Source of the DNA: Pedobacter sp.
GTDB taxonomy: Bacteria; Desulfobacterota; Desulfuromonadia; Desulfuromonadales; Syntrophotaleaceae
Length of the DNA: 64,000 bases
Direction of reading: 5' to 3'
Assembly (NCBI GenBank): GCA_050253415.1
Contig: JBFWJC010000002.1
Location: forward strand, 128,001-192,000
The notes under the pieces were generated by a model that was not told the DNA's origin, ran no database searches, and saw only the letters and a list, made by a program, of their open reading frames with translations. A program made the translations under genes and the position numbers. This document shows positions 3,814 to 54,262 of this stretch, piece after piece; position 1 is the first letter of the stretch, and every line of letters begins with the position of its first letter.

Positions 3814-3946
3814 TCGGTATTTTGTATTATTCATGGCCCGGATAAGGACGCGGGACTGGTCTTTCAGGGACGCAATGCTCACCATAACCCAGCTGTGATA
3901 CCTGCAAAGGCAAAAAGGAGGTTGAAAGCATCTGCTGAAAACGCCT

Positions 3947-6040
3947 GTGAAACCCTTGAACATTGCCGTGATATGGCATATGCATCAGCCCGACTACCGG
4001 GATCCCTTGCAGGATGAAGTGCTGCTTCCGTGGGCTTTTCTGCACGCGGTAAAGGATTACGGGGATATGCTGCAGGTCGCCCTTGATCATGGTGCCCGCG
4101 TGACCTTTAACCTGGTTCCTACTCTCGTGGAGCAGTTGCAGGGGTATGCCTCCGGTACCTTGCGTGATCGTTGGATCGACCTCGCAAGCCGGGATCCCGA
4201 GGCCTTCGGTGATGGGGAGCGGGCCTTTCTGGTGGAGGCGTTTTTTTCCGTTCACGCCGAGCGGCACATACAGCCTTATGCCCGCTATCGTGAGTTGGCG
4301 ACGCTGCGTGAGCTGGGGGACGGCTTTGCCTGGCAGCGGTTTTCAGTCCAGGACCTGCGCGATTTGCAGGTCTGGTTTTTACTGGCCTGGGCAGGGCATT
4401 ATCTGCGCCAGGAATCAGCGGTGGTGAAGGATCTCCTGGTTAAAGGCAGGCATTTCGACGAGCAGGATAAACAGCGCTTACTGCAAACCTATCAGCAGGT
4501 TGTGCAGGGGATTCTCACTCGTTACCGGCAGGCTGAAACCGCTGCGTCGGTCGAGTTATCCGTGACGCCGTACGCGCATCCCATTTTGCCTTTGCTATGC
4601 GATACCAGCGAAGCTTCCCAGGCCCGGCCCGGCGTTCATCTGCCCGATACGCCTTTCCGCTTTCCGGAAGATGCCCGGCGTCATACCCGCTTGGGTTTGC
4701 AATGCGCGCGTGATGTTTTTGGCCCTGGCCAGCGTGGCGTCTGGCCGGCTGAAGGCGGATTAAGCGACGCGGCAGTGCGCATTCTGATTGAAGAGGGGGC
4801 GCGCTGGGCGGCCAGTGACGAAGCGCTGTTGGATAAATCATTGCCTGGCGGCCTGGGCGATCGCAGTCGCCTCTACCGATCCTACAGTCTGGCCGGGTTG
4901 CCGCTGTTGTTCAGGGATCGGGAACTGTCGGATCGCATCGGATTTGTGTATGCTTCCTGGCCTGCACGGGATGCGGCGGCTGACCTGCTTGAGCGTCTGC
5001 GGGCGTTGGCAAAGCAGGCGCCGGGCGGTCTGGTGGCTTTGATTCTGGATGGGGAAAACTGCTGGGAACGTTACGAGGACAACGGCTATCCCTTTTTGAA
5101 GGCCTTTTATCAGGGGATTGCAGACGATCCGGTGTTGCAGACCGTTACTGTCAGCGAGGCGCTGGCAGAGCATAAACCCGAGCCCCTGCCACGTTTGGCG
5201 CCCGGCTCCTGGATTAATGGCGATTTTGATGTCTGGATCGGGCATCCGGAGGAAAACCGGGCCTGGGAATGGTTGGGAGAGGCGCGGCGTGCGCTACAGG
5301 AAGTGGATGACGATCTGCGGGCGACAGCCTTGCCGCACCTGTTGAGGGCCGAAGGCAGTGACTGGTTCTGGTGGTTTGGCGAACATCACCAGACCCAGCA
5401 GGCCGGTACCTTCGATCAGCTGTTCCGCCATCACTTGCAGGCTTTGTACCGCGCGGTGAAACGGCCGGTGCCGGGTTATCTCAGTTACCCTTTGCGGGCT
5501 CCGCAACGTCGCAGTCGCGTATGGGAGCCGACCAGCCTGGTGTGCCCGGTTATCGATGGTCAGGTTACCGATTATTTTGAGTGGCTGGGGGCAGGCAGTG
5601 TCGAGTTGGCTGCGGGCGGCGCCATGCACGATACCAGTTTCGATCTGGTGGGATTTTATTACGGGTATGATGAAAAATATTTTTATCTGCGGTTTGATTT
5701 TCGACAACCCATGGAGCGCTTGACCGGAGCGGGGGGGGAACTGTTTCTGCAGGTACAGACCGATTTCCCCTGGGTTGCCCGCCTGGTTGCAGGCTCTCAT
5801 CGCACGGTGGTTCGACGGGCCTCCGGGGAGGGTGGGGCCGTTTACGCTCCGGGAGCTTGTGCATCCGTTGCCGAACTGGCCCTGCCGTTGGACTTGCTGA
5901 AGCTTGCGCCAGGGGATCGCCTGATTCTGAGCTGGCAGTTGCTGTCCTCCGGCCGTGAATTGGCCCACTGGCCTTCTGACGGGCCGTTGACCTTGACCTA
6001 CTTTGGTACCGACCTGGATGTCCGGCAGTGGCCGCTCTGA
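3947..6040 (+). CDS. Glycoside hydrolase family 57 (amylopullulanase-like)
   Basis: WHMHQP, TPYAHPILPLL, GVWPAEG, LDGENCWE, AEGSDWFWW conserved GH57 regions. Confidence 0.9.
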   Translation: MKPLNIAVIWHMHQPDYRDPLQDEVLLPWAFLHAVKDYGDMLQVALDHGARVTFNLVPTLVEQLQGYASGTLRDRWIDLASRDPEAFGDGERAFLVEAFFSVHAERHIQPYARYRELATLRELGDGFAWQRFSVQDLRDLQVWFLLAWAGHYLRQESAVVKDLLVKGRHFDEQDKQRLLQTYQQVVQGILTRYRQAETAASVELSVTPYAHPILPLLCDTSEASQARPGVHLPDTPFRFPEDARRHTRLGLQCARDVFGPGQRGVWPAEGGLSDAAVRILIEEGARWAASDEALLDKSLPGGLGDRSRLYRSYSLAGLPLLFRDRELSDRIGFVYASWPARDAAADLLERLRALAKQAPGGLVALILDGENCWERYEDNGYPFLKAFYQGIADDPVLQTVTVSEALAEHKPEPLPRLAPGSWINGDFDVWIGHPEENRAWEWLGEARRALQEVDDDLRATALPHLLRAEGSDWFWWFGEHHQTQQAGTFDQLFRHHLQALYRAVKRPVPGYLSYPLRAPQRRSRVWEPTSLVCPVIDGQVTDYFEWLGAGSVELAAGGAMHDTSFDLVGFYYGYDEKYFYLRFDFRQPMERLTGAGGELFLQVQTDFPWVARLVAGSHRTVVRRASGEGGAVYAPGACASVAELALPLDLLKLAPGDRLILSWQLLSSGRELAHWPSDGPLTLTYFGTDLDVRQWPL

Positions 6041-6076: not shown

Positions 6077-7105
6077 TTGTCCGAATTACGTTGGGATCCA
6101 ATTATCGATAATTGGGTTGTGATTGCCAAAGCGCGCGGACGGCGTCCCGTCGATTTCATTACCGAGCGCAGGCACATCGAAAGCATTGCGTGTCCCTTTT
6201 GCTACGGAAACGAGGGAAAGACGCCGGCGGAGGTTTATGCCTTGCGTCCTGACGCAAGCCCGCCGAATCAGCCCGGCTGGCGGGTGCGGGTCATCCCGAA
6301 CAAGTACCCCATGTTGCGTATCGAAGGGCAGCTCGAGTTGCGCGGCGAAGGGTTGTACGATGTCATGAACGGCATCGGCGCGCATGAGGTGATTATCGAG
6401 ACCCCGGATCATGCACGGCATCCTGCCGACCTGCGTGCGGGGGAATTGGCCGACGTGTTTCGCGCTTTTCGCTCCCGCCTCATCGACCTGCGGCGGGACA
6501 AGCGTTTTCGGCACATTGTCATCTACAAGAACCATGGGGTGGAAGCCGGTGCGACCATTCCTCACAACCATAGCCAGTTGCTGGCCTTGCCTATCATTCC
6601 ATCGCAGATGCGCACCGCCCTGCGCTCCAGTCGTGACTACTTTCACCGCAAGGAACGTTGTCTGATGTGCGATCTCCTGGCGCAAGAACTGGCCGACGGC
6701 TCACGTTTGGTCCGGGTTGATAGCGAATTTGCGGTATTTGCCCCGTTTGCCTCGCGGCACCCGTTCAGCTTGCGCATCGTGCCCCGACGCCACAGTCACG
6801 ATTTTGCCTTGTTGACCGATCAGATGTTGCATGCATTGGGAGAGACCATGCACGATGTGATGGTCCGATTACGAACGGTACTTCGCGATCCGCCGTTTAA
6901 TCTGGTGCTGCATAATGCGCCGTCCGCTTTGCCGCGAGCGGGGCGGCCCGATTGCTGGAGCTCGCTCAGTTGCGACTATCACTGGTATTTTGAACTTGTT
7001 CCCAAAATCATGGAGCCGGCCGGATTCGAGTGGGGAACCGGGTTTTTCATCAACCCCACGCCACCTGAAGATGCGGCGCGTTATCTGCGGGAAGCGGTCG
7101 TTTGA
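6077..7105 (+). CDS. galT: GalT-family nucleotidyltransferase (galactose-1-P uridylyltransferase / ADP-glucose phosphorylase-like)
   Basis: SELRWDP, CPFC, RVIPNKYP, GAHEVIIE, HNHSQ (HxHxQ) motif. Confidence 0.85.
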   Translation: MSELRWDPIIDNWVVIAKARGRRPVDFITERRHIESIACPFCYGNEGKTPAEVYALRPDASPPNQPGWRVRVIPNKYPMLRIEGQLELRGEGLYDVMNGIGAHEVIIETPDHARHPADLRAGELADVFRAFRSRLIDLRRDKRFRHIVIYKNHGVEAGATIPHNHSQLLALPIIPSQMRTALRSSRDYFHRKERCLMCDLLAQELADGSRLVRVDSEFAVFAPFASRHPFSLRIVPRRHSHDFALLTDQMLHALGETMHDVMVRLRTVLRDPPFNLVLHNAPSALPRAGRPDCWSSLSCDYHWYFELVPKIMEPAGFEWGTGFFINPTPPEDAARYLREAVV

Positions 7106-7109
7106 TAAT

Positions 7110-7143
7110 CAAGCTATAAGCTTCAAGCTGTAAGCCGTAAGTT
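7110..7143. repeat. Degenerate heptamer tandem repeat (AAGCTNT-like)
   Basis: caagctataagcttcaagctgtaagccgtaagtt, period 7. Confidence 0.5.
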
Positions 7144-7194
7144 ACCAGGCAAGAGCCATTAGTTATCCAGAAAGGTAATTTTATTAATATCGCC

Positions 7195-10100
7195 ATGGCC
7201 GAATCCTACCATTACCTGTTATCGCCGGTCCCCGGTGCCGAGCCGTATTTTCCCCTTTCTTTTCAGATGAGCGCGCTTGCACGACAGCAACTGGAGCTGC
7301 CTCTTTTTCCGGTCGGTGCCTCGCGGCTCTATCGGTTGCGCACGGTGGCCGATCGTTTGCGGCAGCGCCGACCCGACCCATTGTGCAGCGCGGGGCGTCT
7401 TGAGCTGCTTGCGGTACTCAGCGGCGTACTGCGCTATCTGGCACACCGGCATTTGTTGGCGCGGAACTGTAACGCAGCAGTGGATGGGGTTGAAATTGCC
7501 GATCAAACCGTACAGCTTCCGGGGCTGCGGCGCAGTCAGGAGGAATTCGTCCGGCTGTTTCCGGCACAATCAGTTCTGGACGGTATGGAACCCCGGACTT
7601 TTCTATACGGACCTGCAGGCGCCAATGGCCGCCAGCAGACGCTGCTCGAATTGCTGGTGCTGTCGGTGCAGACGGCCAATCCTGCGGCGCAGGTATTCTG
7701 CGATCTGTTTGACGATGGCGAATTGTCGCAACGTGCCCCGTACCGAGCCACCCTTCATGCCCTGGATCGGTGCCTGCGTCAGGCGCCGGCTACCGGACCC
7801 CTGGACCAACCGCTGCTGGAGTTGCTGCTGGCGCCCATCAAGGCCGCACCCGACAGTCTCGAGGGACAAGTACGGTATGTGCGGGCGCATTGGCAGGGGC
7901 TGCTGCCTGCCGATCTGCTGGAAGCCATCGATCGGGGACTGGCAGTGCGCGCGGAAGAGGTGCAGATGCGTGGGGGCGGCCCCGGGGCATTCCGGCTGCC
8001 GGAGTATCCGGCGTCTGTGGCGATGGAGGAGGAACGGTTTTCTTCGGACAGCGACTGGATGTCCGACCTGGTGCTGCTGGCCAAGTCGGTGCACGTCTGG
8101 TTCGACCAGCTGTCCCGTCAGTACGGCCGCCCCGTGACCCGTCTATGCGAGATCCCCGATGAGGAGTTGAACCTTTTGGCGCGTCGCGGTTTTACCGGTC
8201 TGTGGTTGATCGGTATCTGGGAGCGCTCCCCGGCTTCCCGCCAGATCAAGCGTTTGCGTGGCAACCCGGAAGCAGAAGCCTCGGCCTATGCCTTGTTTGA
8301 CTACCGGGTGGCCGATGAGCTCGGCGGTCAGGCGGATCTGGACAATCTGGATTGGCGTTGCAAGCAACGCGGCATCCGCCTGGCTTGCGATGTGGTGCCG
8401 AATCACACCGGTATCGATTCGCGCTGGATGCATGAGCATCCCGACTGGTTTGTGCAGGTGCCGCATCCGCCCTATCCGAGCTACCGGTTCAGCGGTCCCG
8501 ATCTGTCCACCGGCGGATCTGTAAGTCTTTTTCTGGAAGACGGATACTGGGACCACAGCGATGCAGCGGTGGTGTTCAAACGGGTCGATCACCACACCGG
8601 CGAGGTACGCTACATCTACCATGGCAACGACGGTACCCATCTTCCGTGGAACGATACGGCTCAGCTGAATTTTCTGCTGCCTCAGGTGCGCGAAGCCATG
8701 ATCCGCACCATCATCGAGGTGGCGCGCACGTTTCGCGTGATCCGTTTCGATGCCGCCATGACCTTGGCCAAAAAGCATTTCCAGCGTCTCTGGTTCCCCT
8801 TGCCCGGCGGCGGCGCGGGGGTGCCCTCACGGGCGGAACACAGCATGAGCAGCGAGGACTTCGAGCGGCTGTTTCCGCTGGAGTTCTGGCGCGAGGTGGT
8901 CGATCGGGTTGCCGCCGAGGTGCCCGATACCCTGCTGCTGGCCGAGGCTTTCTGGTTGATGGAGAGCTATTTCGTACGCACCCTTGGTATGCACCGGGTG
9001 TATAACAGCGCCTTCATGCACATGATGAAACAGGAAGATAACGGCAAGTACCGCCAGTTGCTCAAAAAGACCCTGGCCTTCAACCCGGAGATCCTCAAAC
9101 GGTTCGTTAATTTCATGAACAACCCTGACGAAGCCACCGCCGTCGAGCAGTTCGGCAAGGGTGACAAATATTTCGGCGTGGCCGTGCTGTTGGCGACGCT
9201 GCCGGGCCTGCCCATGTTCGGGCACGGACAGGTGGAAGGCTTCCGGGAAAAATACGGCATGGAGTTTCGCCGTGCTTACCTGCAGGAAGAGGTGGACCAG
9301 GGATTTGTGGACCATCACGAGAGGTTGATTTGCCCGTTATTGCACAGGCGCGCGCTGTTCAGCGGCGCGGAACATTTTGCCCTGTACGATTTTATGACCG
9401 ACGGTGCGGTGAACGAAGATGTGCTGGCTTACAGCAATCGACGCGGCGACCAGCGGGCGCTGGTGGTGTATCACAACCGCTCCGGGCAAACCGGTGGTTG
9501 GCTGAGAGGTGCCTGCCCCAGTGCCGTCGCAGAGCATGATATTCCTGGCACGCTGGCCGGGGCCCTGGCCTTGCAGACCGGGGGCGGGGGCTTCTACCGT
9601 TTCCGCGATCATTGCAGCGGGCTGCACTATCTGCGTTCCGCCCGGGAATTGGCTGAACAGGGGTTGTTCGTAACCCTGGGTCCCTATGAGGCGCATGTTT
9701 TCCTCGATTTTGTCGAGCTGGTCGATGCTGATGGCAGCTGGCGACGTTTGTGGCAACGGCTCGACGGACGTCCGGTGGCCGATCTCGACGGGGAGTTCCT
9801 CCGGTTGCGTCATGCCGAGCTGTTGCAGTCCCTGGAACAACTGCTTGCTGCCGGTGCGGACTTCCCCCGAATGGATGCCGTGGGGCAGGCTATCGCTTTG
9901 CAGCGGTATGCCGCTTTTCTGCAGTGCTTGCAGCACGATCTCGGTCTGACCGGTGACAGCGAAACGTTGGAAAAGGTTCTACAGCGGCAACTGTTGCTGG
10001 CTGCCGATCTGCCGGATGCAGTAACCCCCTGTATCCGCGACGTATTGTGGTCCTGCCTGGTGCTGTATCCCCTGGCCGGGCCTCACCGTCCCGCCAGCAT

Positions 10101-10538: not shown

Positions 10539-11987
10539 ATGAATATTCTGCTGGCCGCTTCCGAAGTGGCCCCCTTTGCCAAGACCGGCGGGCTGGCCGA
10601 TGTGGCCGGAGCCCTGCCCCGTGAATTGCATCGGATGGGGCATGACGTGCGTATTTTCATGCCCCTGTACCGCAGCGTACGGGAAAAGGATTTTGGCCTC
10701 TGCCCTTTGGCCGAGCTGCCGACGGTGGAGGTCGGTGACGTTCATTATAAGGGCCGCCTGTGGCAGGGGGATTTGCAGGGCGTGCCGGTCTATTTTCTGG
10801 AACAGGATGATTTTTTTGATCGGGATGGCCTGTACGGCACTACGCAGCATGATTATGACGACAATGCGGAGCGGTTCGGGTTTTTTGCCAAGGCTCTGCT
10901 GACGGCACTGCCGCAGATCGGCTTCCAACCCGAGGTGCTGCATCTCAATGACTGGCAGACCGGGCTGGTGCCGGCGTTGCTGCGTTCGGAAGCGAATGCT
11001 TTCTATGCCGATACGGCGACGGTGATGACGATTCACAATCTCGGCTACCAGGGGTTGTTCCCCGAGCAGGCCGTCGCTTCCGTGGGGCTCGATCCTGCAC
11101 TGTTCAACATCGAAGGCCTGGAATACTACGGGCAGATGTCGTTTTTGAAAAGCGGCGTGGTGTATGCCGACCTGATTACCACCGTTTCCGAGACGTATTG
11201 CGCCGAGATTCAGACGCCTGAGATGGGGCATGGTTTTGACGGCATACTGCGCGCTCGCGCCGACCGGTTGTTCGGGGTGCTCAATGGCATCGATGACCAG
11301 CTGTGGGATCCGCAACAGGATCCGGCCTTGCCCTCCTGTTACAGTGCCGAAGACCTGGACGGCAAGGCGGAGAACAAGCGCCAGCTGCAAAAGGCTCTGG
11401 GATTGACGGTTGATGCTGATGTGCCGCTGCTGGCCATGGTTACCCGCCTCGCCAGCCAGAAAGGCCTCGACCTGGTGGAGCAGGCCTGGGATGATCTTCT
11501 GGAACGGGGTGTGCAACTGGTGATTCTCGGATCGGGGGATCAGGACACCATGGACCGATTTGAGAAACTCGGTGCGTTGAGTCCCAATCAGGTGGTGGTG
11601 CGCCTGGGGTTCGACGATCGACTGGCACGGCTGATTTACGCCGGCAGTGATATGTTCCTGATGCCCAGCCATTACGAGCCCTGCGGGCTGGGGCAGCTTA
11701 TTGCCCTGCGTTACGGCAGCGTGCCGGTGGTACGCAAGACCGGTGGTCTGGCCGATACGGTTTTCGACCCGCAGGACCAGGCACCGCAGGCTAACGGGTT
11801 TACCTTCAGCCCGGTTGCGGCTGCCGCCATGCTTGCGGCCATCGATCGGTCCCTGGCCCTGTATCGCATCCCGGAGAAATGGCAGCAGTTGGTGCGTTCG
11901 GGGATGCGGGGGGATTTTTCCTGGCGGCAATCGGCGTTGCGCTATGTCGACCTTTATCAAAAAGCTGTGGAGTTGCACCATGAGTGA
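10539..11987 (+). CDS. glgA: Glycogen synthase
   Basis: SEVAPFAKTGGLADV, HLNDWQ, TIHNLGYQG, MPSHYEPCGL, KTGGL. Confidence 0.95.
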   Translation: MNILLAASEVAPFAKTGGLADVAGALPRELHRMGHDVRIFMPLYRSVREKDFGLCPLAELPTVEVGDVHYKGRLWQGDLQGVPVYFLEQDDFFDRDGLYGTTQHDYDDNAERFGFFAKALLTALPQIGFQPEVLHLNDWQTGLVPALLRSEANAFYADTATVMTIHNLGYQGLFPEQAVASVGLDPALFNIEGLEYYGQMSFLKSGVVYADLITTVSETYCAEIQTPEMGHGFDGILRARADRLFGVLNGIDDQLWDPQQDPALPSCYSAEDLDGKAENKRQLQKALGLTVDADVPLLAMVTRLASQKGLDLVEQAWDDLLERGVQLVILGSGDQDTMDRFEKLGALSPNQVVVRLGFDDRLARLIYAGSDMFLMPSHYEPCGLGQLIALRYGSVPVVRKTGGLADTVFDPQDQAPQANGFTFSPVAAAAMLAAIDRSLALYRIPEKWQQLVRSGMRGDFSWRQSALRYVDLYQKAVELHHE

Positions 11988-32901: not shown

Positions 32902-34380
32902 TTAGCTGCTTTTGGTGGGTGCTTTTGGGCCTTTTTTGGCTGCTGGCAAGTGGATCCTGGCGGTGTGTTCCCCGGCGGCGTTCCTCGGGAACGGGTAGGT
33001 TATGAGCGCGTAGCTGCTGTATAGGCTGACCTTGGTTATGGCGACGGACAGGACTTTGCGCTGCTCCGTTTCGCTGAGCAGGTCGAACTCTTCCCGGGTG
33101 ATGGACAGGGCATCCCAGTCGGGTTGATCCGGTCGGGTGGCTTCGATCTTGCGCCGACGCTCGCGCAGTGCGCCGATGGATGCTTCAATGTCCTGCATTT
33201 TTGCCCGGGCGTCTTCCATGCGCAGGATCCCGTCTGCGATGGCAGCGACCAGGTTATTCTTGCGCTGTTGTTCCTGGTGTTCTTCGCGGTCGATGGCTGC
33301 GAGCTGCTCTGAGGTGGTGTCCTGGCTCTGGGAGGCATGCCACCATGTTTTAAGTTTATCGGTGCTGCTCAGCGTACCGAAAAGGTTGGTGAGCACGCGC
33401 TCGTTGAGGGTGTGCTGTGGGATCATTCTGGACCGGTCGCATGCTCCTGCCGTGTTTTTGGAGCGGCAGCCATAGTAATCGATGCGCGTGCCGTCGTTGC
33501 GGGTGCGACTGTTGCGCCAGGTCTTGACGGTGAGATCGCAATAGCCGCAGCGCAGCAGGTCCAGGTTGGACAAGAGGGCCGCGGCTTCGCGTTTGACGCC
33601 GTTGGTCTTGCGGGTGCGTCGACTGGATCGGATGCGATCGGCTTGCTCGGCGTCCATGACGGGAGTCCAGGACCCTGCGACGATGTCGCCTGTCTCCGGG
33701 TCTTTACGCAGCGCTTGATAAAAGAGCAGTCTATCGTCGGATATGATGCGGCGGATGGAGATCTCCGCACGGCCGAGTTGTTCGGCGATGGCTTTGGCAC
33801 TGTTGGTTTCGGCCAGTTGCCAGATATGTTGACATTCGGCGAGTTGGTCGGTGTCAATCTCTACTTCGCCGGTGTTGCGATCGTAGCGGTATGGGGGTGG
33901 CGCTTTTCCGCCAAGCCATTTACCGGCGCGCAGTGCTTCGCGGCGGCCTTCTGCCATGCGGGCCTGCAGCACCTTCATTTCGACGGAGGAAAAACCGCCC
34001 TCCATCAGCAGGAGCATCCAGTCGCTGTGCTGCTTGGGGTCGAGGCTGCGTGATGGTGTTGCCAGTTTGACGCCGTGTTCGGCGCAGAGATTGAGCCAGC
34101 TGAGATAGTCGGCGAGGGTGTCGTCGCGGCTCAGGCGTGATAGTTCGATGACCAGGATCATGCCTATCTTGCCGGCACGTACGTCAGACTCAAGGCGTGC
34201 GCGTTCGCGCAGATCTTCGACCTTACCCTTGGCAGCACTGGCATGGCCGTCGTCATAGACTTCGACCTGCCATCCCTGCGATGAGGCGTAGGCCGGCAGC
34301 TGCTCGCGTTGGACGGTGAGCCGGTGGGATGGTTTGTTTTTGTCTTCGCGGGATTTGCGTATGTAGACTGCTGCGATCAT
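32902..34380 (-). CDS. Large serine recombinase (phage integrase)
   Basis: YIRKS catalytic Ser, ELSRLSR, GKWLGG..PPPY recombinase domain, LRCGYC...YYGC Zn ribbon, coiled coil. Confidence 0.92.
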   Translation of the reverse strand: MIAAVYIRKSREDKNKPSHRLTVQREQLPAYASSQGWQVEVYDDGHASAAKGKVEDLRERARLESDVRAGKIGMILVIELSRLSRDDTLADYLSWLNLCAEHGVKLATPSRSLDPKQHSDWMLLLMEGGFSSVEMKVLQARMAEGRREALRAGKWLGGKAPPPYRYDRNTGEVEIDTDQLAECQHIWQLAETNSAKAIAEQLGRAEISIRRIISDDRLLFYQALRKDPETGDIVAGSWTPVMDAEQADRIRSSRRTRKTNGVKREAAALLSNLDLLRCGYCDLTVKTWRNSRTRNDGTRIDYYGCRSKNTAGACDRSRMIPQHTLNERVLTNLFGTLSSTDKLKTWWHASQSQDTTSEQLAAIDREEHQEQQRKNNLVAAIADGILRMEDARAKMQDIEASIGALRERRRKIEATRPDQPDWDALSITREEFDLLSETEQRKVLSVAITKVSLYSSYALITYPFPRNAAGEHTARIHLPAAKKGPKAPTKSS

Positions 34381-46863: not shown

Positions 46864-46888
46864 TCCCGCCGCCGTGGTGGCGGCGGGA
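46864..46888 (+). terminator. GC-rich hairpin immediately before the cassette array
   Basis: TCCCGCCGCC-gtggt-GGCGGCGGGA, weak U-tract. Confidence 0.45.
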
Positions 46889-46893
46889 AGATT

Positions 46894-46995
46894 TTGAAAC
46901 GCCAAGGTAAGACGCGCCGCACTTCCGACGGCGCACCACTAAATTTAACGCGAACCTGCCAGCTATTGCGCGTCGTCTTGACCGGCTGGTTGTGC
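46894..46995 (-). other. attC-like site 1
   Basis: + strand: TTGAAAC-GCCAA-GGTAAGAC ... GTCTTGACC-GGCTG-GTTGTGC; one extra base in the right inner box. Confidence 0.8.
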
Positions 46996-47013
46996 CCGCC
47001 TACGGAGGAGTGA

Positions 47014-47253
47014 ATGAAGATCTGGTTTGTAGGAAAGCCGATTGTTGTTGATGGAGAAGAACTTGGCTGGATGCCGGAAGGGGCTTTTGAGACAGAAGAG
47101 GAGGCGGCGAAGGTTGCCACAGATGCCGAATTTATCGTACTGGCCGAGGTTGGAGGAAGATTTCCAGAAAAAGCCACAGATGCCGAAAAGCTGTATTACC
47201 CGAAACTGGAGCGGTGGGAGGATAGCGCCCTTTACAAGATGCGGAATCAGTAA
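47014..47253 (+). CDS. Cassette 1 hypothetical protein
   Basis: GGAGGAG RBS; flanked by GTTGTGC / GAACAAC. Confidence 0.75.
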   Translation: MKIWFVGKPIVVDGEELGWMPEGAFETEEEAAKVATDAEFIVLAEVGGRFPEKATDAEKLYYPKLERWEDSALYKMRNQ

Positions 47254-47255
47254 GG

Positions 47256-47330
47256 GAACAACGCCTGCCGATCAGCGGTGAACGAAGGAGCGCAGCGGAT
47301 GAGTTATCCGCTGCATGGGCCTTGTTAAAC
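47256..47330 (-). other. attC-like site 2
   Basis: GAACAAC...GATCAGCGG...GCGCAGC...CCGCTGCATG...GTTAAAC. Confidence 0.78.
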
Positions 47331-47350
47331 AGCCATAAGGAAATGGTCAA

Positions 47351-47737
47351 ATGACACGATTTAAATTTAGAGCATGGGACTCCGTGAACAAGGAAATGCT
47401 TGACGCAAATACTGGATGTTTTTTCTACGAAGAAGACAACGGTTTCCATTGTGGATACCTGGCTGGTGTCAACGCTCCTGCTGATGTTGCGGGGGATTGG
47501 GTTGAATGCCCTGTGATGCAATGGACCGGGATCCGTGACAAAAACGGCATCGAGATTTACGAGGGTGACATTGTAAACCTTGACACTCTTTGCAAATACG
47601 AAGGCGGTGGGACTATTTGGAGAATTAAGCCGCACAAGGTTGTTTTTGAACGCCAGAGATGGCTCCCGGATAGACTGTCGGAGTCTGAAATTATTGGCAA
47701 CATCTACGAACACCCTGAGCTGGTCGGGGCAGTTTAA
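47351..47737 (+). CDS. Cassette 2: YopX-family protein
   Basis: KFRAWD, MQWTGIRDKNG.EIYEGDIV, EIIGNIYEHPEL. Confidence 0.88.
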   Translation: MTRFKFRAWDSVNKEMLDANTGCFFYEEDNGFHCGYLAGVNAPADVAGDWVECPVMQWTGIRDKNGIEIYEGDIVNLDTLCKYEGGGTIWRIKPHKVVFERQRWLPDRLSESEIIGNIYEHPELVGAV

Positions 47738-47865
47738 CGCTTGAGATCACGGGATTGCGGAGGAAACTATGACAATTGATATGGATATGCCATTTGGCGA
47801 GTTTGCACGGAAACACCTTGATACCGGCGCGGGTAGCAATTCCGCTGTGGATCGACTGGTTAAAT
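47732..47865 (-). other. attC-like site 3 (contains RBS and start of cassette 3 gene)
   Basis: GTTTAAC-GCTTGA-GATCACGGGATTGC ... GCAATTCCGCTGTGGATC-GACTG-GTTAAAT. Confidence 0.8.
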
Positions 47866-48164
47866 CGCCGCCGGTAGTCTGCCTGTGCGGATCTACTCGT
47901 TTTTTCGATGCGTTCAGAGACGCGAATCGCGCCGAAACGATGGAGGGAAAGATCGTGCTTGCTCCCGGAGTGTTTGGCCATTGCGGCGATCCATTGACTG
48001 ACGACGATAAGTTGCGGCTAGATATTTTGCACTATTGGAAAATTGACCTGGCCGACGAGGTGCTTGTGCTCAATGTTGGCGGGTACATTGGCAGCAGCAC
48101 CCAAAACGAAATCGAGTATGCCAAGCGAACCGGGAAACCTGTGCGCTTTCTTGAGGCGATTTAA
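47769..48164 (+). CDS. Cassette 3: nucleoside 2-deoxyribosyltransferase-like fold protein
   Basis: VCLCGSTRF, KIDLADEVLVLNVGGYIGSST..EIEYAK..GKPV. Confidence 0.7.
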   Translation: MTIDMDMPFGEFARKHLDTGAGSNSAVDRLVKSPPVVCLCGSTRFFDAFRDANRAETMEGKIVLAPGVFGHCGDPLTDDDKLRLDILHYWKIDLADEVLVLNVGGYIGSSTQNEIEYAKRTGKPVRFLEAI

Positions 48165-48218
48165 CGACTTAGTATGAGCGCGCCTGCGTAGCAGGTCCGC
48201 TCGATGCGCTGGTTCTAA
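48159..48218 (-). other. attC-like site 4
   Basis: ATTTAAC...TATGAGCG-CGCCTGCGTAGCAGGTC-CGCTCGATG-CGCTG-GTTCTAA. Confidence 0.82.
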
Positions 48219-48252
48219 AGGGTTTTCGCGCTCGGCGAAGCCGATAGGGGGT

Positions 48253-49110
48253 TTGATTGTGGGTTTATTTGAGACAACAGAAGAAGAACTGTACCAGATC
48301 GCCATAAGTCGGCCGCTTGAAGAGAAGATTGATCAGGCAATCTCTCTTATCCAGGCGACTGAAGGCCAAGCGTTGAAATTATCTGATGATGGCTTTTACG
48401 TCTGCTTTTCTGGGGGGAAAGACAGCATTGTCATGGCTCGGTTGTTTGAGATGGCCGGTGTTAAATTTGGCCTACATTACAACAATGTGACAATCGATCC
48501 TCCCGAACTGGTTCGGTTTATCAAGGAAGAATATCCCCATGCGGAATGGCATTCTGTCGGCAAGCACCTGATCAACTACATGGCCGAAGACAAGGTTTGC
48601 GGTCCCCCAACGCGGCTAATTCGCTGGTGTTGCGAGATTTACAAAGAGCAAGGTGGGGTTGATAAATTCCGGGCAATAGGGGTGAGGGCCGAAGAGTCCG
48701 CCAGGCGGAAGGGGTTGTGGAAGCAGATTACCACTGACAGGAAAACGAAGATGCCGATTTTATGCCCCATTTTGTATTGGACACATGCCGACATCTGGGC
48801 ATTCATCAAGCAGCATGACATGCCGTATTGCTGCTTGTATGACGAGGGTTTTGACCGCCTGGGCTGTGTCGGGTGCCCAATGGGAGGACCAAAAGGGCAA
48901 GCCCGCGATTTCGCCCGCTGGCCGAAATATGAAGCGATGTGGAAGCGTGGATTCAGGAAGTATTTTGACAAGTACAAGGGCGTTCCGAAGCGCAACGGGG
49001 AGCCTCGGGCAATCGAAAAATTCCCAACCGTAGACGACCTGTGGAATTGGTGGATAAGCGGCAAAGCCTATGAAGGCGACAATCCGGATTGCCAACTGTG
49101 GCTGTGGTAG
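48253..49110 (+). CDS. Cassette 4: PAPS-reductase-family (PP-loop) protein
   Basis: CFSGGKDS, RWCCEIYKE, GVRAEES..R, PILYWT..DIW, RLGCVGCP. Confidence 0.88.
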   Translation: MIVGLFETTEEELYQIAISRPLEEKIDQAISLIQATEGQALKLSDDGFYVCFSGGKDSIVMARLFEMAGVKFGLHYNNVTIDPPELVRFIKEEYPHAEWHSVGKHLINYMAEDKVCGPPTRLIRWCCEIYKEQGGVDKFRAIGVRAEESARRKGLWKQITTDRKTKMPILCPILYWTHADIWAFIKQHDMPYCCLYDEGFDRLGCVGCPMGGPKGQARDFARWPKYEAMWKRGFRKYFDKYKGVPKRNGEPRAIEKFPTVDDLWNWWISGKAYEGDNPDCQLWLW

Positions 49111-49128
49111 GTTTTGCGCGAAAAGACT

Positions 49129-49230
49129 TTAGAACGATCATGGTCAGCGACGGTGTGAGAACGGACGCGCCGCACCGACCTAAACGAGAATCGCCGCAGG
49201 TCTTCCGTTCGCTGGACCTGCTGGTTAGAT
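49129..49230 (-). other. attC-like site 5
   Basis: TTAGAAC-GATCAT-GGTCAGCGACGG ... CCGTTCGCTGGACC-TGCTG-GTTAGAT; two unpaired bases (T, G) on the right arm. Confidence 0.85.
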
Positions 49231-49250
49231 TTCTTTCTATAGAGGAACTT

Positions 49251-49451
49251 ATGAAACCTAAATGCCCACATTGCGATCACCAGTTTGATGACGACCAAGT
49301 TTGGCACGGAAGCAACAACTGCGAATTCCCAACCGAGCGCGACGGTGATACGGGGGAATTCGACTGCCCGATCTGCGGGAAGCCGCTGTATGTTCGTATT
49401 GAATTCACCCCCGCATGGTACTTCACCGACGATAACGGCATTGAAATCTAA
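49251..49451 (+). CDS. Cassette 5: small Zn-finger protein
   Basis: MKPKCPHC...DCPICG; GAGG RBS. Confidence 0.75.
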   Translation: MKPKCPHCDHQFDDDQVWHGSNNCEFPTERDGDTGEFDCPICGKPLYVRIEFTPAWYFTDDNGIEI

Positions 49452-49531
49452 TAACAAAGATCAGCGGCGAAGGAGGCCGTAGCCTATGAAACTGAAGCGT
49501 TTATTTCGTCCGCTGTATTGGCTGGTTATGC
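49446..49531 (-). other. attC-like site 6 (left box ATCTAAT is degenerate; contains RBS and start of cassette 6 gene)
   Basis: ATCTAAT-AACAAA-GATCAGCGGCGAA ... TTCGTCCGCTGTATT-GGCTG-GTTATGC. Confidence 0.78.
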
Positions 49532-49695
49532 GCTGCACTGGAACTATTTATTTGGAACCTGGCCTTAGAGTAACCACTTCTGGCTGGGTGATTATTTCTG
49601 ACGGGAAATCGAAAGATGCTTTGCCTATCAGCCTCGTCTCGCAAGAGATTGTGGATAAGGTGGAAGCCAGTTTGGCAAGTTGGGGTTACACATAA
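49486..49695 (+). CDS. Cassette 6 hypothetical protein
   Basis: AGGAGG RBS inside the attC; stop TAA lies in the ACATAAC box. Confidence 0.65.
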   Translation: MKLKRLFRPLYWLVMRCTGTIYLEPGLRVTTSGWVIISDGKSKDALPISLVSQEIVDKVEASLASWGYT

Positions 49696-49744
49696 CGACT
49701 AGCTGACCGAGAGCGCAGCGATTCGGTCGAGCGGCTTGTTGTAA
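49690..49744 (-). other. attC-like site 7 (55 bp)
   Basis: ACATAAC-GACTA-GCTGACCG-AGAGCGCAGCGATT-CGGTCGAGC-GGCTT-GTTGTAA. Confidence 0.88.
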
Positions 49745-49756
49745 TGCGAGGGACCT

Positions 49757-50020
49757 ATGAAAAAGAACCGATTGGCCGCAAAGGAGTGGCGCGAAGAAGA
49801 TCAACGGAAAAAGAAGCAAGCTGAAGACATTGAGTACGCCACAAGCAAAACATACGACGCAGAAAAGCGCATCCGTGGCTTGAGTGCAACAATCGAGTAT
49901 GCCGGGCATCCAGAAATCGCAGAAAAGGTAGAGTCTGCGAGGTTGCTATTAGCAGAATCTTACGAAAATCTGCAAGCAATACAACGACTAGCTGACCGAG
50001 AGCGCAGCGATTCGGTCTAG
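49757..50020 (+). CDS. Cassette 7 hypothetical coiled-coil protein
   Basis: GAGG RBS; reads into attC8. Confidence 0.7.
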   Translation: MKKNRLAAKEWREEDQRKKKQAEDIEYATSKTYDAEKRIRGLSATIEYAGHPEIAEKVESARLLLAESYENLQAIQRLADRERSDSV

Positions 50021-50033
50021 CGGCTTGTTAGAC
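49979..50033 (-). other. attC-like site 8 (55 bp, near-identical to site 7)
   Basis: ATACAAC-GACTA-GCTGACCG-AGAGCGCAGCGATT-CGGTCTAGC-GGCTT-GTTAGAC. Confidence 0.88.
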
Positions 50034-50048
50034 ATTAAATAAAGGAGC

Positions 50049-50243
50049 ATGAAAATGTTGATTACGTTTAAAGCAAGATGCCCTGAGTGCGGAGTGGATG
50101 GAAAACACACAGTGGAAATAGGACAAGACCTGCACCCGAAGAAGGTACTTCTTTGCGACACGGAAGTTGGAGGATGCGACTGTTATTTCGCAGCATTTAT
50201 AAACATAAGGGCCGAAGCTGAAACGGCAAAGATAGATGTCTAA
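50049..50243 (+). CDS. Cassette 8: small Cys-rich protein
   Basis: AAGGAG RBS; CPEC...LCD..GGC; stop lies in the GTCTAAC box. Confidence 0.75.
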   Translation: MKMLITFKARCPECGVDGKHTVEIGQDLHPKKVLLCDTEVGGCDCYFAAFINIRAEAETAKIDV

Positions 50244-50351
50244 CAGAGGTAACAATGGAAAATTTTCCACTTATCACCACGATTAAAGCCAAAAAGTGGA
50301 AAACAGCCGTCAACAAATGACAACAGCCAAATGACAAAGGACACCCCCTGA

Positions 50352-51101
50352 ATGTTCCAGCGCGCCCAACAACTCATCGACGTTGCCAGCCAGCACCAAA
50401 AAGCCGAACTGGTCACACTGCACAACGCCGTGCTCGAACGCATGGAAGCCTACAAGAAGGCCAGCACCGCCGCCAACAAGCGCGACTGGGCCGCCGCCAA
50501 AAAAGGCCTGCAGGAGTGCATCGACCAACTCTTGCCGGTGTACTTCCCCGAGCTGTCCGCCGCCGACCCGGAGGTGTTCGACACCCAAAAAGCCGCCCTC
50601 GCCTGGCTGCACAACCACTTCGGCAAACCGTACCCGTCCGCCGGCAAGTTCAGCCAGGATATCCGTGACGGGCTGTGCCTGCAGCAGCAGAACAAAACCA
50701 TCCTGCGCAAGGATCTCAAAAAATACGCCGAGGTCATCGGCCATGACAAGCAGGCCGCCGCCGCCTCGGCCAGCCAAGCCGAAAAACGCGAAAAGCTCGA
50801 AATCGAAAAGCTGGAGCTGGATGTCGAAAAACGCCGGATGGAAAACCGCAAGGAGGACAAAAACTGGATCGCCCGCGACACCGTCTTCGAACGCGAAGGC
50901 GCCCTTGTCGGTCAGATCATGGGCGAAGCCCGCCATCACCTCGGCCGCGCCGTACCCGCCGTGATCCATGCCGCCAAAGGCGACCCCGAGCGCACCCCGG
51001 AGATCAAAAAAATTATCGAAGAAGCCCTGTTCGACGCCTTCCGCTCCCTGTATGAATCCGGCGAAGTCGACATGACCTTTTTGCAAGAAGAAGAGGACTG
51101 A
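50352..51101 (+). CDS. Probable terminase small subunit
   Basis: Coupled (TGATG) to the large terminase; central coiled coil EKREKLEIEKLELDVEKRRME as in Nu1-like proteins. Confidence 0.6.
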   Translation: MFQRAQQLIDVASQHQKAELVTLHNAVLERMEAYKKASTAANKRDWAAAKKGLQECIDQLLPVYFPELSAADPEVFDTQKAALAWLHNHFGKPYPSAGKFSQDIRDGLCLQQQNKTILRKDLKKYAEVIGHDKQAAAASASQAEKREKLEIEKLELDVEKRRMENRKEDKNWIARDTVFEREGALVGQIMGEARHHLGRAVPAVIHAAKGDPERTPEIKKIIEEALFDAFRSLYESGEVDMTFLQEEED

Positions 51102-53077
51102 TGCAAACCGCCCTGGCCGCCGACATCTTTGCCCAGCCCCTGCCCGAGTTTTTCCCCGAGCAGCTGCGCCACGCCTGCAGCGGTAAACGCATCCGCTACA
51201 CGCTGCCGCGCTCCGTGCGCGAACGCATGCAAATACCCGAAGACATCACCGTCAGCCAATGGGCCGAAAAATACCGCCGCGTCACCGCCATCGACGCCGA
51301 GCCAGGCCGCTGGCGCATCGACCGCGTCCCCCACACCAAAAAACTCATGGACATGATCAGCCTGCCGTGGGTCAAGGAATTCTGGCTGTGCATGGTCGAG
51401 CGCGCCGCCAAAACCCAGATAGTGCTCAACGCCGCCTGCCGTCAGATCGACCGCGGCATAGACTCCGGCAACGTATTTTGGCTCATGCCAAGCGAAGCCG
51501 ACGCCAAAAAAGCCCTCAGCGAACGCATCATACCCGTACTCAAAGAGAGCCCCCGCATGGCTCGGCTGCTGTCGCGCTACGCCGACGACACCACCAGCAC
51601 CAAGATCCGCTTTAAACACGGACCGCGCCTGTTTCCCGCCTGGTCCAACAGCCCCGGCTCCATCGCCTCGTTTTACGGCAAGCTCAACATCGGCGATGAG
51701 ATCGACAAATACGGCGACCGCTCCGGCGGCGAAACCGACCCCATTACCCTGCTCAAAAAACGCGGCCGCGACAGCGACGAATCCAAATTCCTGTTTGCCA
51801 GCACCCCCGCCGGTAAATTTATATACAAAGGCACCATGGCCTGCCAGCAAGTCTGGACCTACAAAAACCGCTGCCCCCATTGCGGTGAATACATCCTGAT
51901 GGACGCCGATCATTTCATGCTACCCGAAGGCGCCACCCAGGAGACCATCAAACACGGCGAGCACCCCGTCACCTACGCCTGCAACGACTGCGGCGTAGAA
52001 TGGGACGAAACCGACCGCAAAACCGCCTACCAAAACGGCGACTGGTTCGCCATCAAAGGCGCCGATGTCGAGCGGCCCACCACCATCGGAGCCTGGTTGC
52101 CGGCCTTCCCGCTGCCCAACATCCCCATGGCCGAGATCGGCGCCGCCATCGCCCGCGCCAACACCGGAGATCTCGCCGGTAAGATGGACCTCGCCCACGG
52201 CTATAAAGCCGTCGACTACGAAGCCGAAAACAAAGACCGGCAAGAAGACGCCATCCTGCTGCTGCGCGACGACCGCCCGGCAGGCATGATCCCCACCGAA
52301 GCCAACGGCCTCGAAATATCCATCGACACCCAGGATAACGGCTTCTGGTATCGCATCCGCGCCTGGCGTTACGGCCTCGATCTCAAAAGCTGGCTTGTCA
52401 AAGCCGGATATGTGCCCAGTGCCAACGCCGCCGACTTTGCCGCCCTCGATGATCTCATCGCGGCCGAATACCCCGACACCAACGGCGAGCCCCACCGCAT
52501 TATGGCCGGCATCATCGACAGCGCCGGGCATCGCACCAGCGAAGTCTACGCCTGGTGCCGCCGCACCGGAATCATACCAGCCAAAGGTGCCCAAGGCCGC
52601 AAGACCCAGCCCGTCACCGTCAGCCGCATCGACCGTTTCCCCGGTGACAACAAACCGATCCCCGGCGGCCTCAACCTCTACCATATCGACACGCATTTTC
52701 ACAAAGACCAACTCGCCAACAAACTGCAGATCGACCCCTCCGATCCCGGCGCCCTGGTGCTGCACAGCGGCTATAGCCTTGACCAGCTCACAGCCCTGCA
52801 CCGCGATCCAAACGGTAAACAAGCCCACAACCTGGAGGAATACGCCCGCCAGATGTGCGTCGAATACCGCGACGAGCGCGGCCTGTGGCAATGCCCCGAC
52901 GGCAAAGCCAATCACCTGTGGGATTGTGAAAACAACGGCCTCGCCCTGGTCATGTACCTGGGTTGGCAGCACAAAGGCAGCGTAAAAAAGAAGCCCGCCA
53001 CCAACGGACTCAAACCCAAAGACACCGCACCAGCCGCCACCAGCCGCGACCTTCCGGCATGGTATCGCAACCGCTAA
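51101..53077 (+). CDS. Terminase large subunit, lambda GpA family
   Basis: TVSQWAEKYR, GDEIDKY, FASTP, CPHCG/CNDCG, IDTQ, IDSAG, NHLWDC. Confidence 0.9.
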   Translation: MQTALAADIFAQPLPEFFPEQLRHACSGKRIRYTLPRSVRERMQIPEDITVSQWAEKYRRVTAIDAEPGRWRIDRVPHTKKLMDMISLPWVKEFWLCMVERAAKTQIVLNAACRQIDRGIDSGNVFWLMPSEADAKKALSERIIPVLKESPRMARLLSRYADDTTSTKIRFKHGPRLFPAWSNSPGSIASFYGKLNIGDEIDKYGDRSGGETDPITLLKKRGRDSDESKFLFASTPAGKFIYKGTMACQQVWTYKNRCPHCGEYILMDADHFMLPEGATQETIKHGEHPVTYACNDCGVEWDETDRKTAYQNGDWFAIKGADVERPTTIGAWLPAFPLPNIPMAEIGAAIARANTGDLAGKMDLAHGYKAVDYEAENKDRQEDAILLLRDDRPAGMIPTEANGLEISIDTQDNGFWYRIRAWRYGLDLKSWLVKAGYVPSANAADFAALDDLIAAEYPDTNGEPHRIMAGIIDSAGHRTSEVYAWCRRTGIIPAKGAQGRKTQPVTVSRIDRFPGDNKPIPGGLNLYHIDTHFHKDQLANKLQIDPSDPGALVLHSGYSLDQLTALHRDPNGKQAHNLEEYARQMCVEYRDERGLWQCPDGKANHLWDCENNGLALVMYLGWQHKGSVKKKPATNGLKPKDTAPAATSRDLPAWYRNR

Positions 53078-53087
53078 GGAGACCACC

Positions 53088-53306
53088 ATGACACCACCGC
53101 AAATATACCGCCGCAAAGACATGCTCACCGTCGCCCAATTCGCCAAAGTCATCGGCATGAGCCGTAGTTTTGCCTATCAACTGGTCGAGCGCGGACCGCA
53201 AGAAGGCGGCGTTCTGGCGTTTCGTTATGGCAAGACAAAAGGGCTTAGGGTGCCGGCGGAAGAGGTGACGCGATATCAGCAGGAGAGAAAGGTTGTTGAG
53301 GTATAA
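53088..53306 (+). CDS. Small winged-HTH (excisionase/HTH_17-like) protein
   Basis: MLTVAQFAKVIGMSRSFAYQLVERG...LRVPAEEV; AAGGAG RBS. Confidence 0.8.
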   Translation: MTPPQIYRRKDMLTVAQFAKVIGMSRSFAYQLVERGPQEGGVLAFRYGKTKGLRVPAEEVTRYQQERKVVEV

Positions 53307-53360
53307 CGGATTTGAGGTGTGCGGCGAGCGTAGCGAGTCCACACCAGCGAAGGGTTATGA
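53301..53360 (-). other. attC-like site 9 (solo cassette)
   Basis: GTATAAC-GGATTT-GAGGTGTG...GAGCGTAGCGA...CACACCAGC-GAAGG-GTTATGA. Confidence 0.75.
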
Positions 53361-54187
53361 TGCCCATGCAGAAACAGCGAATCATACGGGTTTTTCCGAG
53401 ACGGACAGCGGCCACGCCAGATGATGATCTGGTGAGGATCGCCACAACGCCCGGCCTCTTTGACGAAGCCGATGAAGTGCATGTGTCGGTGACGTTTACT
53501 TGGGATTTACCCCTTGTCGAAAAACTGGCGAAAGCCTGGGAGCCGGTGGCTCCTGTGACGATCGGAGGCCCGGCGACGGGAGAAGCTGGGGGGGATTTTA
53601 CCCCTGGCTTGTACGTCAAAAAAGGCTACGTACTCACCTCTCGCGGCTGCCCGAACAACTGCTGGTTTTGTTCCGTGCCAAAACGTGAAGGCCCGTTGCG
53701 GGAATTGCCGATCACCGAAGGCTGGAACGTCCTCGATGACAACTTGTTGGCATGCTCTGACGATCATGTCCGGAGAGTGTTCGAGATGCTGTATGGCCAG
53801 AAGAAAAACGGACGGATTCAATTTACTGGCGGACTGGAAGCTGCCCGCCTCAAACCCTGGCACGTTGAAGCCCTGCGGGGATTGAGGCCGAAACAGATGT
53901 TCTTTGCGTACGACACGCCCGACGATCTGGAACCGCTGCAGGACGCTGGTAGGATGCTGTTGGATGCTGGCTTTACGATCACAAGTCACGCCCTTCGGGC
54001 CTATGTGTTGTGCGGCTGGCCGAAGGATAGTTTTGAGGCGGCAGGCCGCAGGATGCAACAAACGATAGACGCCGGTTTCATGCCGATGGCGATGCTTTAC
54101 CGTGGCGTAGCCGGCAAACGTGATACGGAGTGGATGCGCTGGCAACGGGAATGGGCGAGACCAGCCATAATTGCCAAGGCATCATAA
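53357..54187 (+). CDS. Cassette 9: radical SAM protein
   Basis: TSRGCPNNCWFC (CxxxCxxC), LDDNLLA; flanked by GTTATGA / TCATAAC. Confidence 0.85.
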   Translation: MMPMQKQRIIRVFPRRTAATPDDDLVRIATTPGLFDEADEVHVSVTFTWDLPLVEKLAKAWEPVAPVTIGGPATGEAGGDFTPGLYVKKGYVLTSRGCPNNCWFCSVPKREGPLRELPITEGWNVLDDNLLACSDDHVRRVFEMLYGQKKNGRIQFTGGLEAARLKPWHVEALRGLRPKQMFFAYDTPDDLEPLQDAGRMLLDAGFTITSHALRAYVLCGWPKDSFEAAGRRMQQTIDAGFMPMAMLYRGVAGKRDTEWMRWQREWARPAIIAKAS

Positions 54188-54262
54188 CATCCTTTAACCA
54201 GCCCACAATGACAGTTACCCATATAATTATTTTAGGCAAAACCGCAAAAACCTAAAAAAGTT

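Follow-up and report, generated by a model that had tools for sequence, protein, structure and literature searches.

The question raised by this locus is which way gene cassettes face when the integron that holds them is carried by a phage. The window, the whole 64-kb stretch analysed here (contig 2, 128001-192000, of a 4.1-Mb genome bin in 18 contigs, whose DNA occurs in landfill-metagenome runs and in no listed RNA run), contains in a lambda-like prophage an array of cassettes with integron recombination sites (attC) at 46894-50244, and a solitary ninth cassette lies outside it. The first-pass annotation of this DNA had proposed that the array runs from right to left while every open reading frame (ORF) runs from left to right. 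Its boundaries coincide with the start of the first attC match (46894) and with the terminal crossover box (50238-50244), and the reversal of the genes relative to attC is confirmed: all nine attC sites are on the minus strand and all nine cassette ORFs on the plus strand. The region is probably an integron cassette array borne by a phage, from which the integrase has been lost.

Strand and anatomy of the attC sites

The bin contains a regular integron that served as an internal standard. Its integrase gene, intI (contig 1, 1750302-1751246, minus strand; TIGR02249, 447.6 bits with a cut-off of 265), precedes attI and then a plus-strand array that reaches the contig end, in which 15 attC sites were located. 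A covariance model, R1, was built from 14 distinct host attC sites aligned in top-strand orientation, as set by the neighbouring intI and attI, with a hand-written structure of R-box and L-box pairs and a single bulged column. A box-and-bulge scanner of our own was too insensitive, and the covariance model was used instead. On the training locus, R1 gave at most 12.7 bits on the reverse strand compared with 25.9-98.3 bits on the true strand. When 16 unrelated chromosomal integron loci were searched with intI oriented to plus, 11 returned matches and five did not, and 46 of the 49 matches were on minus. The exceptions were one stray match in locus L046 and two in L043, where the sites are downstream of intI and on its own strand, as in the inverted-integrase, Treponema-like type. 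Given these low reverse-strand scores and this control result, the strand call of R1 is meaningful.

Searching the whole window with R1 (filters off, E <= 10) returned 13 matches. Nine lie in the two cassette regions, all on minus (binomial p = 0.004), and no plus-strand match was found in either region; the other four are elsewhere in the window, with E values of 3.3-8.2. The eight array sites score 15.8-52.0 bits (E from 0.22 down to 2.5e-10; Table 1), and the R'', L'', L' and R' boxes are in register in the alignments of all nine sites. The predicted polarity had been argued from minus-strand L'' boxes with an extra C at position 4, and all five (GGTCAAGA, GATCCAC, CATCGAGC, GGTCCAGC and GCTCGACC) are seen in the R1 alignments; two further array sites have an extra A instead. 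The box GGTCAAGA belongs to site 0, which has its crossover box AA/C at 46899/46900. An unpaired inner-box base had been claimed for all eight array sites. A single extrahelical base is clear in seven; site 1 (47256) does not have a clean single-base bulge. The mini-hairpin words GCG[ACT]AGC, described as bottom-strand-like on plus, are so distributed, with five on plus and none on minus in the nine window sites, and three on the bottom strand and one on the top strand in 51 host sites. As had also been noted, the far (left) end of the array is a full attC and the right end is only a crossover box, beside an attI-like stretch.

It is extremely unlikely that these are not integron sites at all but intergenic phage hairpins or terminators resembling attC. 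Sites of this kind are short imperfect palindromes, and two of the nine matches have E > 0.01. However, R1, which derives from a bona fide integron, finds the best of them at E 2.5e-10 with boxes and bulges in register, and relatives described below have a true integron integrase beside the same kind of array. The eight minus-strand sites are within 3.2 kb, and a TIGR02249 search of the genome found no integron integrase in the window, the sole match above the cut-off being on contig 1. The array is thus of the type defined as a cluster of attC sites lacking integron-integrase (CALIN), for which the available text of PMC4889954 gives at least two attC on one strand separated by under 4 kb. The window has neither of two features of a complete integron, intI beside the array and sense cargo readable from the cassette promoter (Pc); all nine of its ORFs are antisense.

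Cassette genes are antisense to attC

Direction was scored as the strand, relative to attC, of the longest ORF over the whole unit. In the window 9/9 cassettes are antisense, whereas in the host arrays outside it 35 of 39 intervals are sense and four antisense (Fisher p = 4e-7). A version of the test with a 25-nt margin gave 6/7 antisense, the odd one being an artefact of cutting ORF7. The host exceptions are mainly two cassettes with a 349-aa antisense ORF each (contig 1, 338630-340933; contig 16, 955-3763). Among the IMG/VR relatives 23/28 units are antisense, which with the window makes 32/37 phage-type units (p = 1e-11 against the host, 4/39; p = 1e-6 against other chromosomal integrons, 11/37, where the test is noisy because those loci are G+C-rich).

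Each unit in the window is filled by a plus-strand ORF with a Shine-Dalgarno-like motif, and the stop codon is usually inside the next left box, as that of ORF2 is. Family matches (YopX, PAPS reductase and radical SAM; Table 1) fall on plus only, and the minus-strand ORFs tested (7/7) had no Pfam match. In two cases translation starts inside attC: the loop of site 2 encodes the ribosome-binding site, the start codon and the first ~30 codons of ORF3, and that of site 5 contains the ribosome-binding site and start codon of ORF6. The body of ORF3 is related to a phage gene in viral locus L111. ORF7 runs into the following attC because the box there is CAAC and not TAAC. Sites 6 and 7 are near-copies (47 nt, 98% identical), and each precedes an unrelated small gene. 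The ninth cassette (53301-54190) is between a helix-turn-helix gene (53088-53306) and the head genes, inserted at an apparent split GTT secondary site.

Related phages carry their own integron integrase

IMG/VR contains four relatives, with 74-78% identity, of the gene to the right of the array (50352-51101). In one of these loci, L012, an integron integrase gene (5023-5991; TIGR02249, 415.8 bits against the same cut-off) ends 9 nt before the homologue of this gene, on the same strand, and to its left are a short attI region and then cassettes. The IntI of L012 and that of the host are 47% identical. Relatives of the L012-type IntI were found in 17 IMG/VR loci, one of which shares its contig with L012 and one with L010. 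In the seven IntI loci with upstream flank, 19/19 attC matches are on minus, upstream of intI. L011 and L012 together add 7/7 minus matches, the two of L012 being the same sites as those of L014, and L112, L113 and L114, found via cassette genes, add 11/11. The same attC/gene polarity is thus present in at least 12 related or similar viral contigs, many of which encode true integron integrases, all from a single clade, just upstream of terminase. In these relatives intI and attC are on opposite strands, which is the regular geometry in the available text of PMC13323075 and PMC4889954, and the cargo is co-directional with intI. None of the 19 attC matches places intI on the attC strand, as an inverted integrase would be.

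The records behind L113 and L114 have an intact plus-strand intI (409.6 and 327.3 bits). That of L025 is 5'-truncated (residues 146-313; 7001-7558), that of the L112 record is in fragments and internally deleted (10745-11096), and the L011 record, with a completeness rating of 100%, has no intI. The decaying genes of L025 and the L112 record adjoin arrays of nine and six detected attC sites, respectively, in near-complete phage genomes. In a quick tree of 53 rows, rooted at the midpoint only, the phage IntIs and one from a 3.6-kb contig of a metagenome-assembled genome (MAG) form a clade of 12 (SH-like approximate likelihood-ratio test, 99); the host IntI is far outside it, and those of L114 and L024 are on long branches outside. 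Among contigs of assembled genomes, that 3.6-kb contig was the one close relative of the phage IntI, the others having at most 56% identity. In this contig (L031, Desulfuromonas) a minus-strand attC at 1328-1416 followed by a plus ORF is downstream of intI, so cassettes of this polarity occur on the terminase side too.

The cargo is typical of phages (DNA methylases, PAPS reductase, YopX, radical SAM). Together with the viral contigs, the IntI clade and the lack of any cassette in common with the host arrays, it gives strong comparative support to the suggestion of a phage-adapted cassette class in the first-pass annotation.

A marker that owes nothing to R1 is found in L014, which is on the same contig as L012. 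A full plus-strand group II intron (3896-5787) lies inside this phage integron array and encodes a protein with reverse transcriptase and maturase domains (RVT_1 and GIIM); its Rfam matches are RF02001 (128.7 bits) and RF00029 (42.1 bits), covering D1-D4 and domain V, with a further match of 39.5 bits. The 5' GTGTG of the intron begins right after an attC hairpin, at TTGT/T. In the available text of PMC7923331, introns of the IIC-attC type insert after the bottom-strand attC stem-loop at TTGT/T, opposite to the cassette genes. By this rule plus is the bottom strand in L014, in agreement with R1.

If plus were instead the top strand, the cassettes would be classical, gene then attC, and the strand call of R1 an artefact. 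Each plus ORF is indeed closely followed by an attC with the stop codon in its first box, as in classical cassettes, right boxes on plus agree with GTTRRRY in about as many cases as left boxes on minus, and the conserved gene blocks begin at the right box of the upstream attC. Nevertheless, the R1 call is 9/9 and is backed by controls, it is the 3' arm of the plus strand that bears the extra bases, and the intI and attI sides of the relatives, like the orientation of the intron, fit a minus top strand only or agree with it. Moreover, every crossover would sever ORF3 and ORF6 from their start codons, and the attC downstream of the PAPS reductase gene is not conserved with that gene. We consider a plus top strand very unlikely.

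Cassettes shared among phages

The PAPS reductase cassette is common to the window and L011 (3817-4761), with 85% DNA identity. The identity covers the gene and breaks off immediately beyond the left box of the attC that follows, where a crossover is expected with plus as the bottom strand. Between the radical-SAM gene of the ninth cassette and L025:6158-6974 the identity is 73.6%. In L025 this unit is the first cassette of the array, with the 3' end of the gene abutting attI; in the window it is solitary at the GTT site. Array content varies among relatives whose flanks are 70-81% identical. No window cassette is copied elsewhere in the host genome, and the window attC sites score with R1 (15.8-52 bits) like those of the phage relatives (16-55) and not like host sites (mostly 44-98), so the two cassette pools look separate.

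The leader of ORF3 (~26-30 residues beginning MTIDMDMPF, in 47732-47865) recurs in L112:1964-2095, within an attC with co-varying arms; in the two phages it is fused in frame to gene bodies that are unrelated. At L113:2001-2396 the leader N-terminus heads an ordinary gene. In 30 of 33 viral loci with relatives of the radical-SAM gene or ORF3, R1 with default filters found no attC match; these are ordinary phage genes, found in cassettes only in some cases. No empty site for either insertion could be aligned among L010-L013. The array is covered without differences by contigs of three DNA runs of a single study, which have no joint at the cassette boundaries; the listed joints, with sides of 21-52 nt, resemble other organisms or repeats.

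Ends and origin of the array

The stretch next to the terminal box has two copies of a TTTTCCAC/GTGGAAAA-type motif, and 50245-50320 on minus can be aligned colinearly with part of the attI region of the host. Of the five occurrences of the 12-mer GGAAAATTTTCC in the 4.1-Mb genome, four are at host attI copies and the fifth is in this stretch. We call the stretch attI-like and not attI because the proximal repeat is missing and the core motif is palindromic. In the intI-bearing relatives, ~55 nt are conserved between the crossover box (…TAA/C on plus) and the start of intI. Four other attI-like copies are present in the host genome (identity of 84-93% over 102-128 nt, with one 24-nt piece). 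No integron-integrase match was found at the four copies, and each heads its own sense-oriented attC array. Elsewhere in the host, at contig 2 470321-470557, a fragment of intI (95.7 bits, residues 228-306) is followed after ~1 kb by two attC matches on plus, at 471387 and 473578.

These similarities raise the possibility that the array was built in place by the host IntI at a host-type attI gained by the prophage, with reversed genes kept by selection because only they are expressed from phage promoters. The otherwise attI-restricted 12-mer, the intact host intI, the four other orphan attI-headed arrays and a prophage without intI are all in keeping with this. But the window cassettes have no copies elsewhere in the host genome, their attC sites score in the range of the phage relatives, two of them are common to related phages, and the polarity is the same in relatives with an intI of their own. 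This origin is unlikely.

Passive pick-up of a piece of a bacterial array in reverse, which would leave the polarity without functional meaning, appears more unlikely still. The lower G+C and inverted GC skew of the array among phage genes speak for it, and the available text of Qi et al. (2023; PMC9892861) considers illegitimate recombination as a route into phages. Flipping a whole piece would, however, put the genes on minus; they are on plus, and the inversion is inside each unit. The layout also recurs at the same locus in at least 12 viral contigs with different cassettes, the cargo is phage-typical, and movement of individual units between phages is partly seen.

A possible phage-resident class of integron

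We return to the reading of an integron carried by a phage and deprived of its integrase. Transcription of phage late regions is unidirectional, and in a regular integron located in such a region one of the two, intI or the cargo, must point the wrong way. We suggest that a lambda-like temperate phage lineage keeps an integron immediately upstream of its terminase genes, retaining intI and the recombination geometry and flipping the cargo inside the cassettes. The attC bottom strands would then be on the phage coding strand, and each cassette would read attC, ribosome-binding site, gene, and stop codon in the next crossover box. New cassettes would enter at the attI end. The cassette genes would be read not from Pc but by read-through of the phage operon toward attI, intI and the terminase genes, and the same cassettes would be silent in a host integron; phages and their bacterial host would have separate cassette pools. 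The window array is presumed to have lost intI, and the resemblance of the attI-like end to the host attI suggests that the host IntI elsewhere in the genome may act on the array in trans. As the geometry is kept and the cargo flipped, the direction of the genes would be set by the expression context of the carrier and not by the recombination machinery.

A larger proposal is that these integrons form a distinct phage-resident class, with an IntI clade of its own upstream of terminase, attC at the 5' end of the gene, a ribosome-binding site, start codon and portable leader borne in attC loops, a single phage operon in which shuffling is switched on in lytic replication, and a pool of counter-defence and accessory genes closed to bacterial integrons. 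We put this forward tentatively, as a possibility just short of an even chance.

Several observations weigh against this account. It predicts that each gene moves with the attC on its left. The attC bodies left of the shared PAPS reductase gene align only in part, those left of the radical-SAM gene do not align, and the conserved blocks span from the right box to the next left box, so that either attC sites evolve much faster than genes or exchange also occurs at the other box. The attC of site 2 with its leader is joined to a different gene body in L112, and ORF7 crosses the predicted cassette boundary. The attI-like end of the window does not have the crossover-proximal repeat of the host attI and differs from the short attI that is conserved in the relatives with intI. 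A promoter and terminator scan found no signal that stood out (two promoter-like sites compared with 4.6 expected). In five of the 37 phage-type units the sense ORF is slightly longer, and the cassette counts are not phylogenetically independent. R1 derives from one genome only. Finally, the link between intI on contig 1 and the prophage on contig 2 is made by binning, in a metagenome bin, and by the shared attI copies.

Comparison with known systems

Integrons and CALINs in phages have been published by Qi, Rajabal, Ghaly, Tetu and Gillings (Front Microbiol 2023; PMC9892861). The available part of that paper describes attC arrays with or without intI in temperate and virulent phages, as here, includes a prophage integron flanked by tail, capsid and terminase genes, and names DNA methyltransferases as common cargo, as in the relatives found here. 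In the same part the direction of genes relative to attC is not discussed (the words 'antisense' and 'opposite' occur 0 times), and there is no report of a phage lineage that has an IntI clade of its own at a fixed locus. A literature search that had subscription papers and supplements outside its reach turned up no account of reversed cargo in phage integrons. With the present locus come a bona fide IntI clade and, in the same genome, a classical control.

Regular chromosomal integrons, that of the host included, share with the phage type the integrase family, the anatomy of attC and the intI-attI-attC geometry. They differ in that their cargo is sense (35/39 in the host) and that of the phage type antisense (32/37; 9/9 in the window), and in the phage type attC precedes the gene and can contain its translation start. 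In the inverted integron-integrase group, for example in Treponema, intI is co-directional with the cassette genes, as here; according to the available portions of PMC3607928, PMC4889954 and PMC13323075, however, it is intI that is flipped, on the attC strand and transcribed toward attI. In the phage type intI is opposite to attC and reads away from attI, and the genes are flipped. The ninth cassette, between a GTT-type half-site and its own attC, is like the attG-type secondary-site insertions in the accessible text of bioRxiv 10.1101/2022.09.11.507474, but is unlike those cases in being inside a phage genome with its cargo reversed. The L014 intron is like IIC-attC introns in its TTGT/T site just 3' of an attC hairpin; in the available text of PMC7923331 the classical ones are opposite to the cassette genes, whereas this one shares the strand of the cargo.

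Orientation-specific insertion is held to serve the reading of promoterless cargo from Pc (PMC13108822 and PMC3607928, in the portions available). The kept geometry with its flipped cargo points to a second cassette pool, probably made by a different route. If confirmed, this would mean that phages gain site-specific swapping of accessory and anti-restriction genes, would explain why bacterial and phage cassette pools may not mix, and would offer a handle on the unsolved origin of cassettes, for which a 5' attC, a start codon inside attC and a group II intron on the cargo strand are unusual. Integron surveys that assume sense cargo would also misread viral arrays.

Genomic setting

Bacterial genes, including those for glutamate synthase, 2-oxoglutarate dehydrogenase and carbonic anhydrase, occupy the window from 1 to ~32.9 kb. 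The prophage begins at a large serine recombinase gene (32902-34380) and includes a CI-type repressor, a D5-type primase-helicase, a primase, the gpA large terminase, a lambda-family portal, an S49 protease and an E-type major capsid protein. The G+C content of 46.9-50.3 kb is 0.46-0.54 compared with ~0.60 in the flanks, and its GC skew is opposite in sign to theirs. A blastn search of GenBank phages with a 7.5-kb query returned seven short, chance-level matches and no relative, and an Rfam scan of the window, with a collection that has no attC model, found no family at gathering score.

A perfect hairpin (inverted repeat I7) just upstream of the array has 10-nt arms that are 100% complementary and 5 nt apart. 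It may serve the phage operon as a terminator or as a target of antitermination; a simple terminator scan did not list it.

Table 1. Features of the cassette regions and attI-like copies of the host (window coordinates unless a contig is named)
Feature	Position	Strand	Remarks
GC-rich perfect hairpin, then short T run	46864..46888	+	just upstream of array
attC site 0, last of array, farthest from attI, complete	46894..46995	-	32.5 bits, E 1.7e-5
ORF1, 79 aa	47014..47253	+	no family match; longest minus alternative 14 aa
attC site 1, weakest of array	47256..47330	-	15.8 bits, E 0.22
ORF2, YopX family	47351..47737	+	PF09643, 69 bits; phrog_98
attC site 2, 96-nt loop	47732..47865	-	20.4 bits
ORF3, 131 aa	47769..48164	+	N-terminal leader coded within attC site 2
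attC site 3	48159..48218	-	23.7 bits; L'' = CATCGAGC
ORF4, PAPS-reductase-like	48253..49110	+	PF01507, 80 bits; phrog_424
attC site 4, top-scoring	49129..49230	-	52.0 bits, E 2.5e-10; L'' = GGTCCAGC
ORF5, 66 aa, zinc-ribbon-like	49251..49451	+	weak zinc-ribbon matches, all below cut-offs
attC site 5	49449..49531	-	33.4 bits
ORF6, 69 aa	49486..49695	+	stopped by TAAC box
attC site 6	49690..49744	-	25.9 bits
ORF7, 87 aa	49757..50020	+	36 nt beyond predicted cassette boundary
attC site 7	49979..50033	-	26.2 bits
ORF8, 64 aa, nearest attI	50049..50243	+	stop codon in terminal box
Terminal crossover box (GTCTAAC on plus) and attI-like stretch	50238..50320	-	host attI similarity
Conserved phage gene, small-terminase position	50352-51101	+	relatives carry intI directly upstream
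Large terminase gpA	51101-53077	+	family match
attC of solitary ninth cassette	53301..53360	-	17.2 bits, E 0.1
Radical-SAM-like ORF, solitary ninth cassette	53357..54190	+	phrog_9298; ends in box CATAAC
attI-like copies of the host	contig 1 335784-335885, 7562-7585; contig 2 119437-119564; contig 3 106416-106531		

The ends of the PAPS reductase block are ~20-nt inverted repeats that extend the R boxes (48213-48233 and 49115-49135). Those of the radical-SAM block are similar, over about 12 nt.

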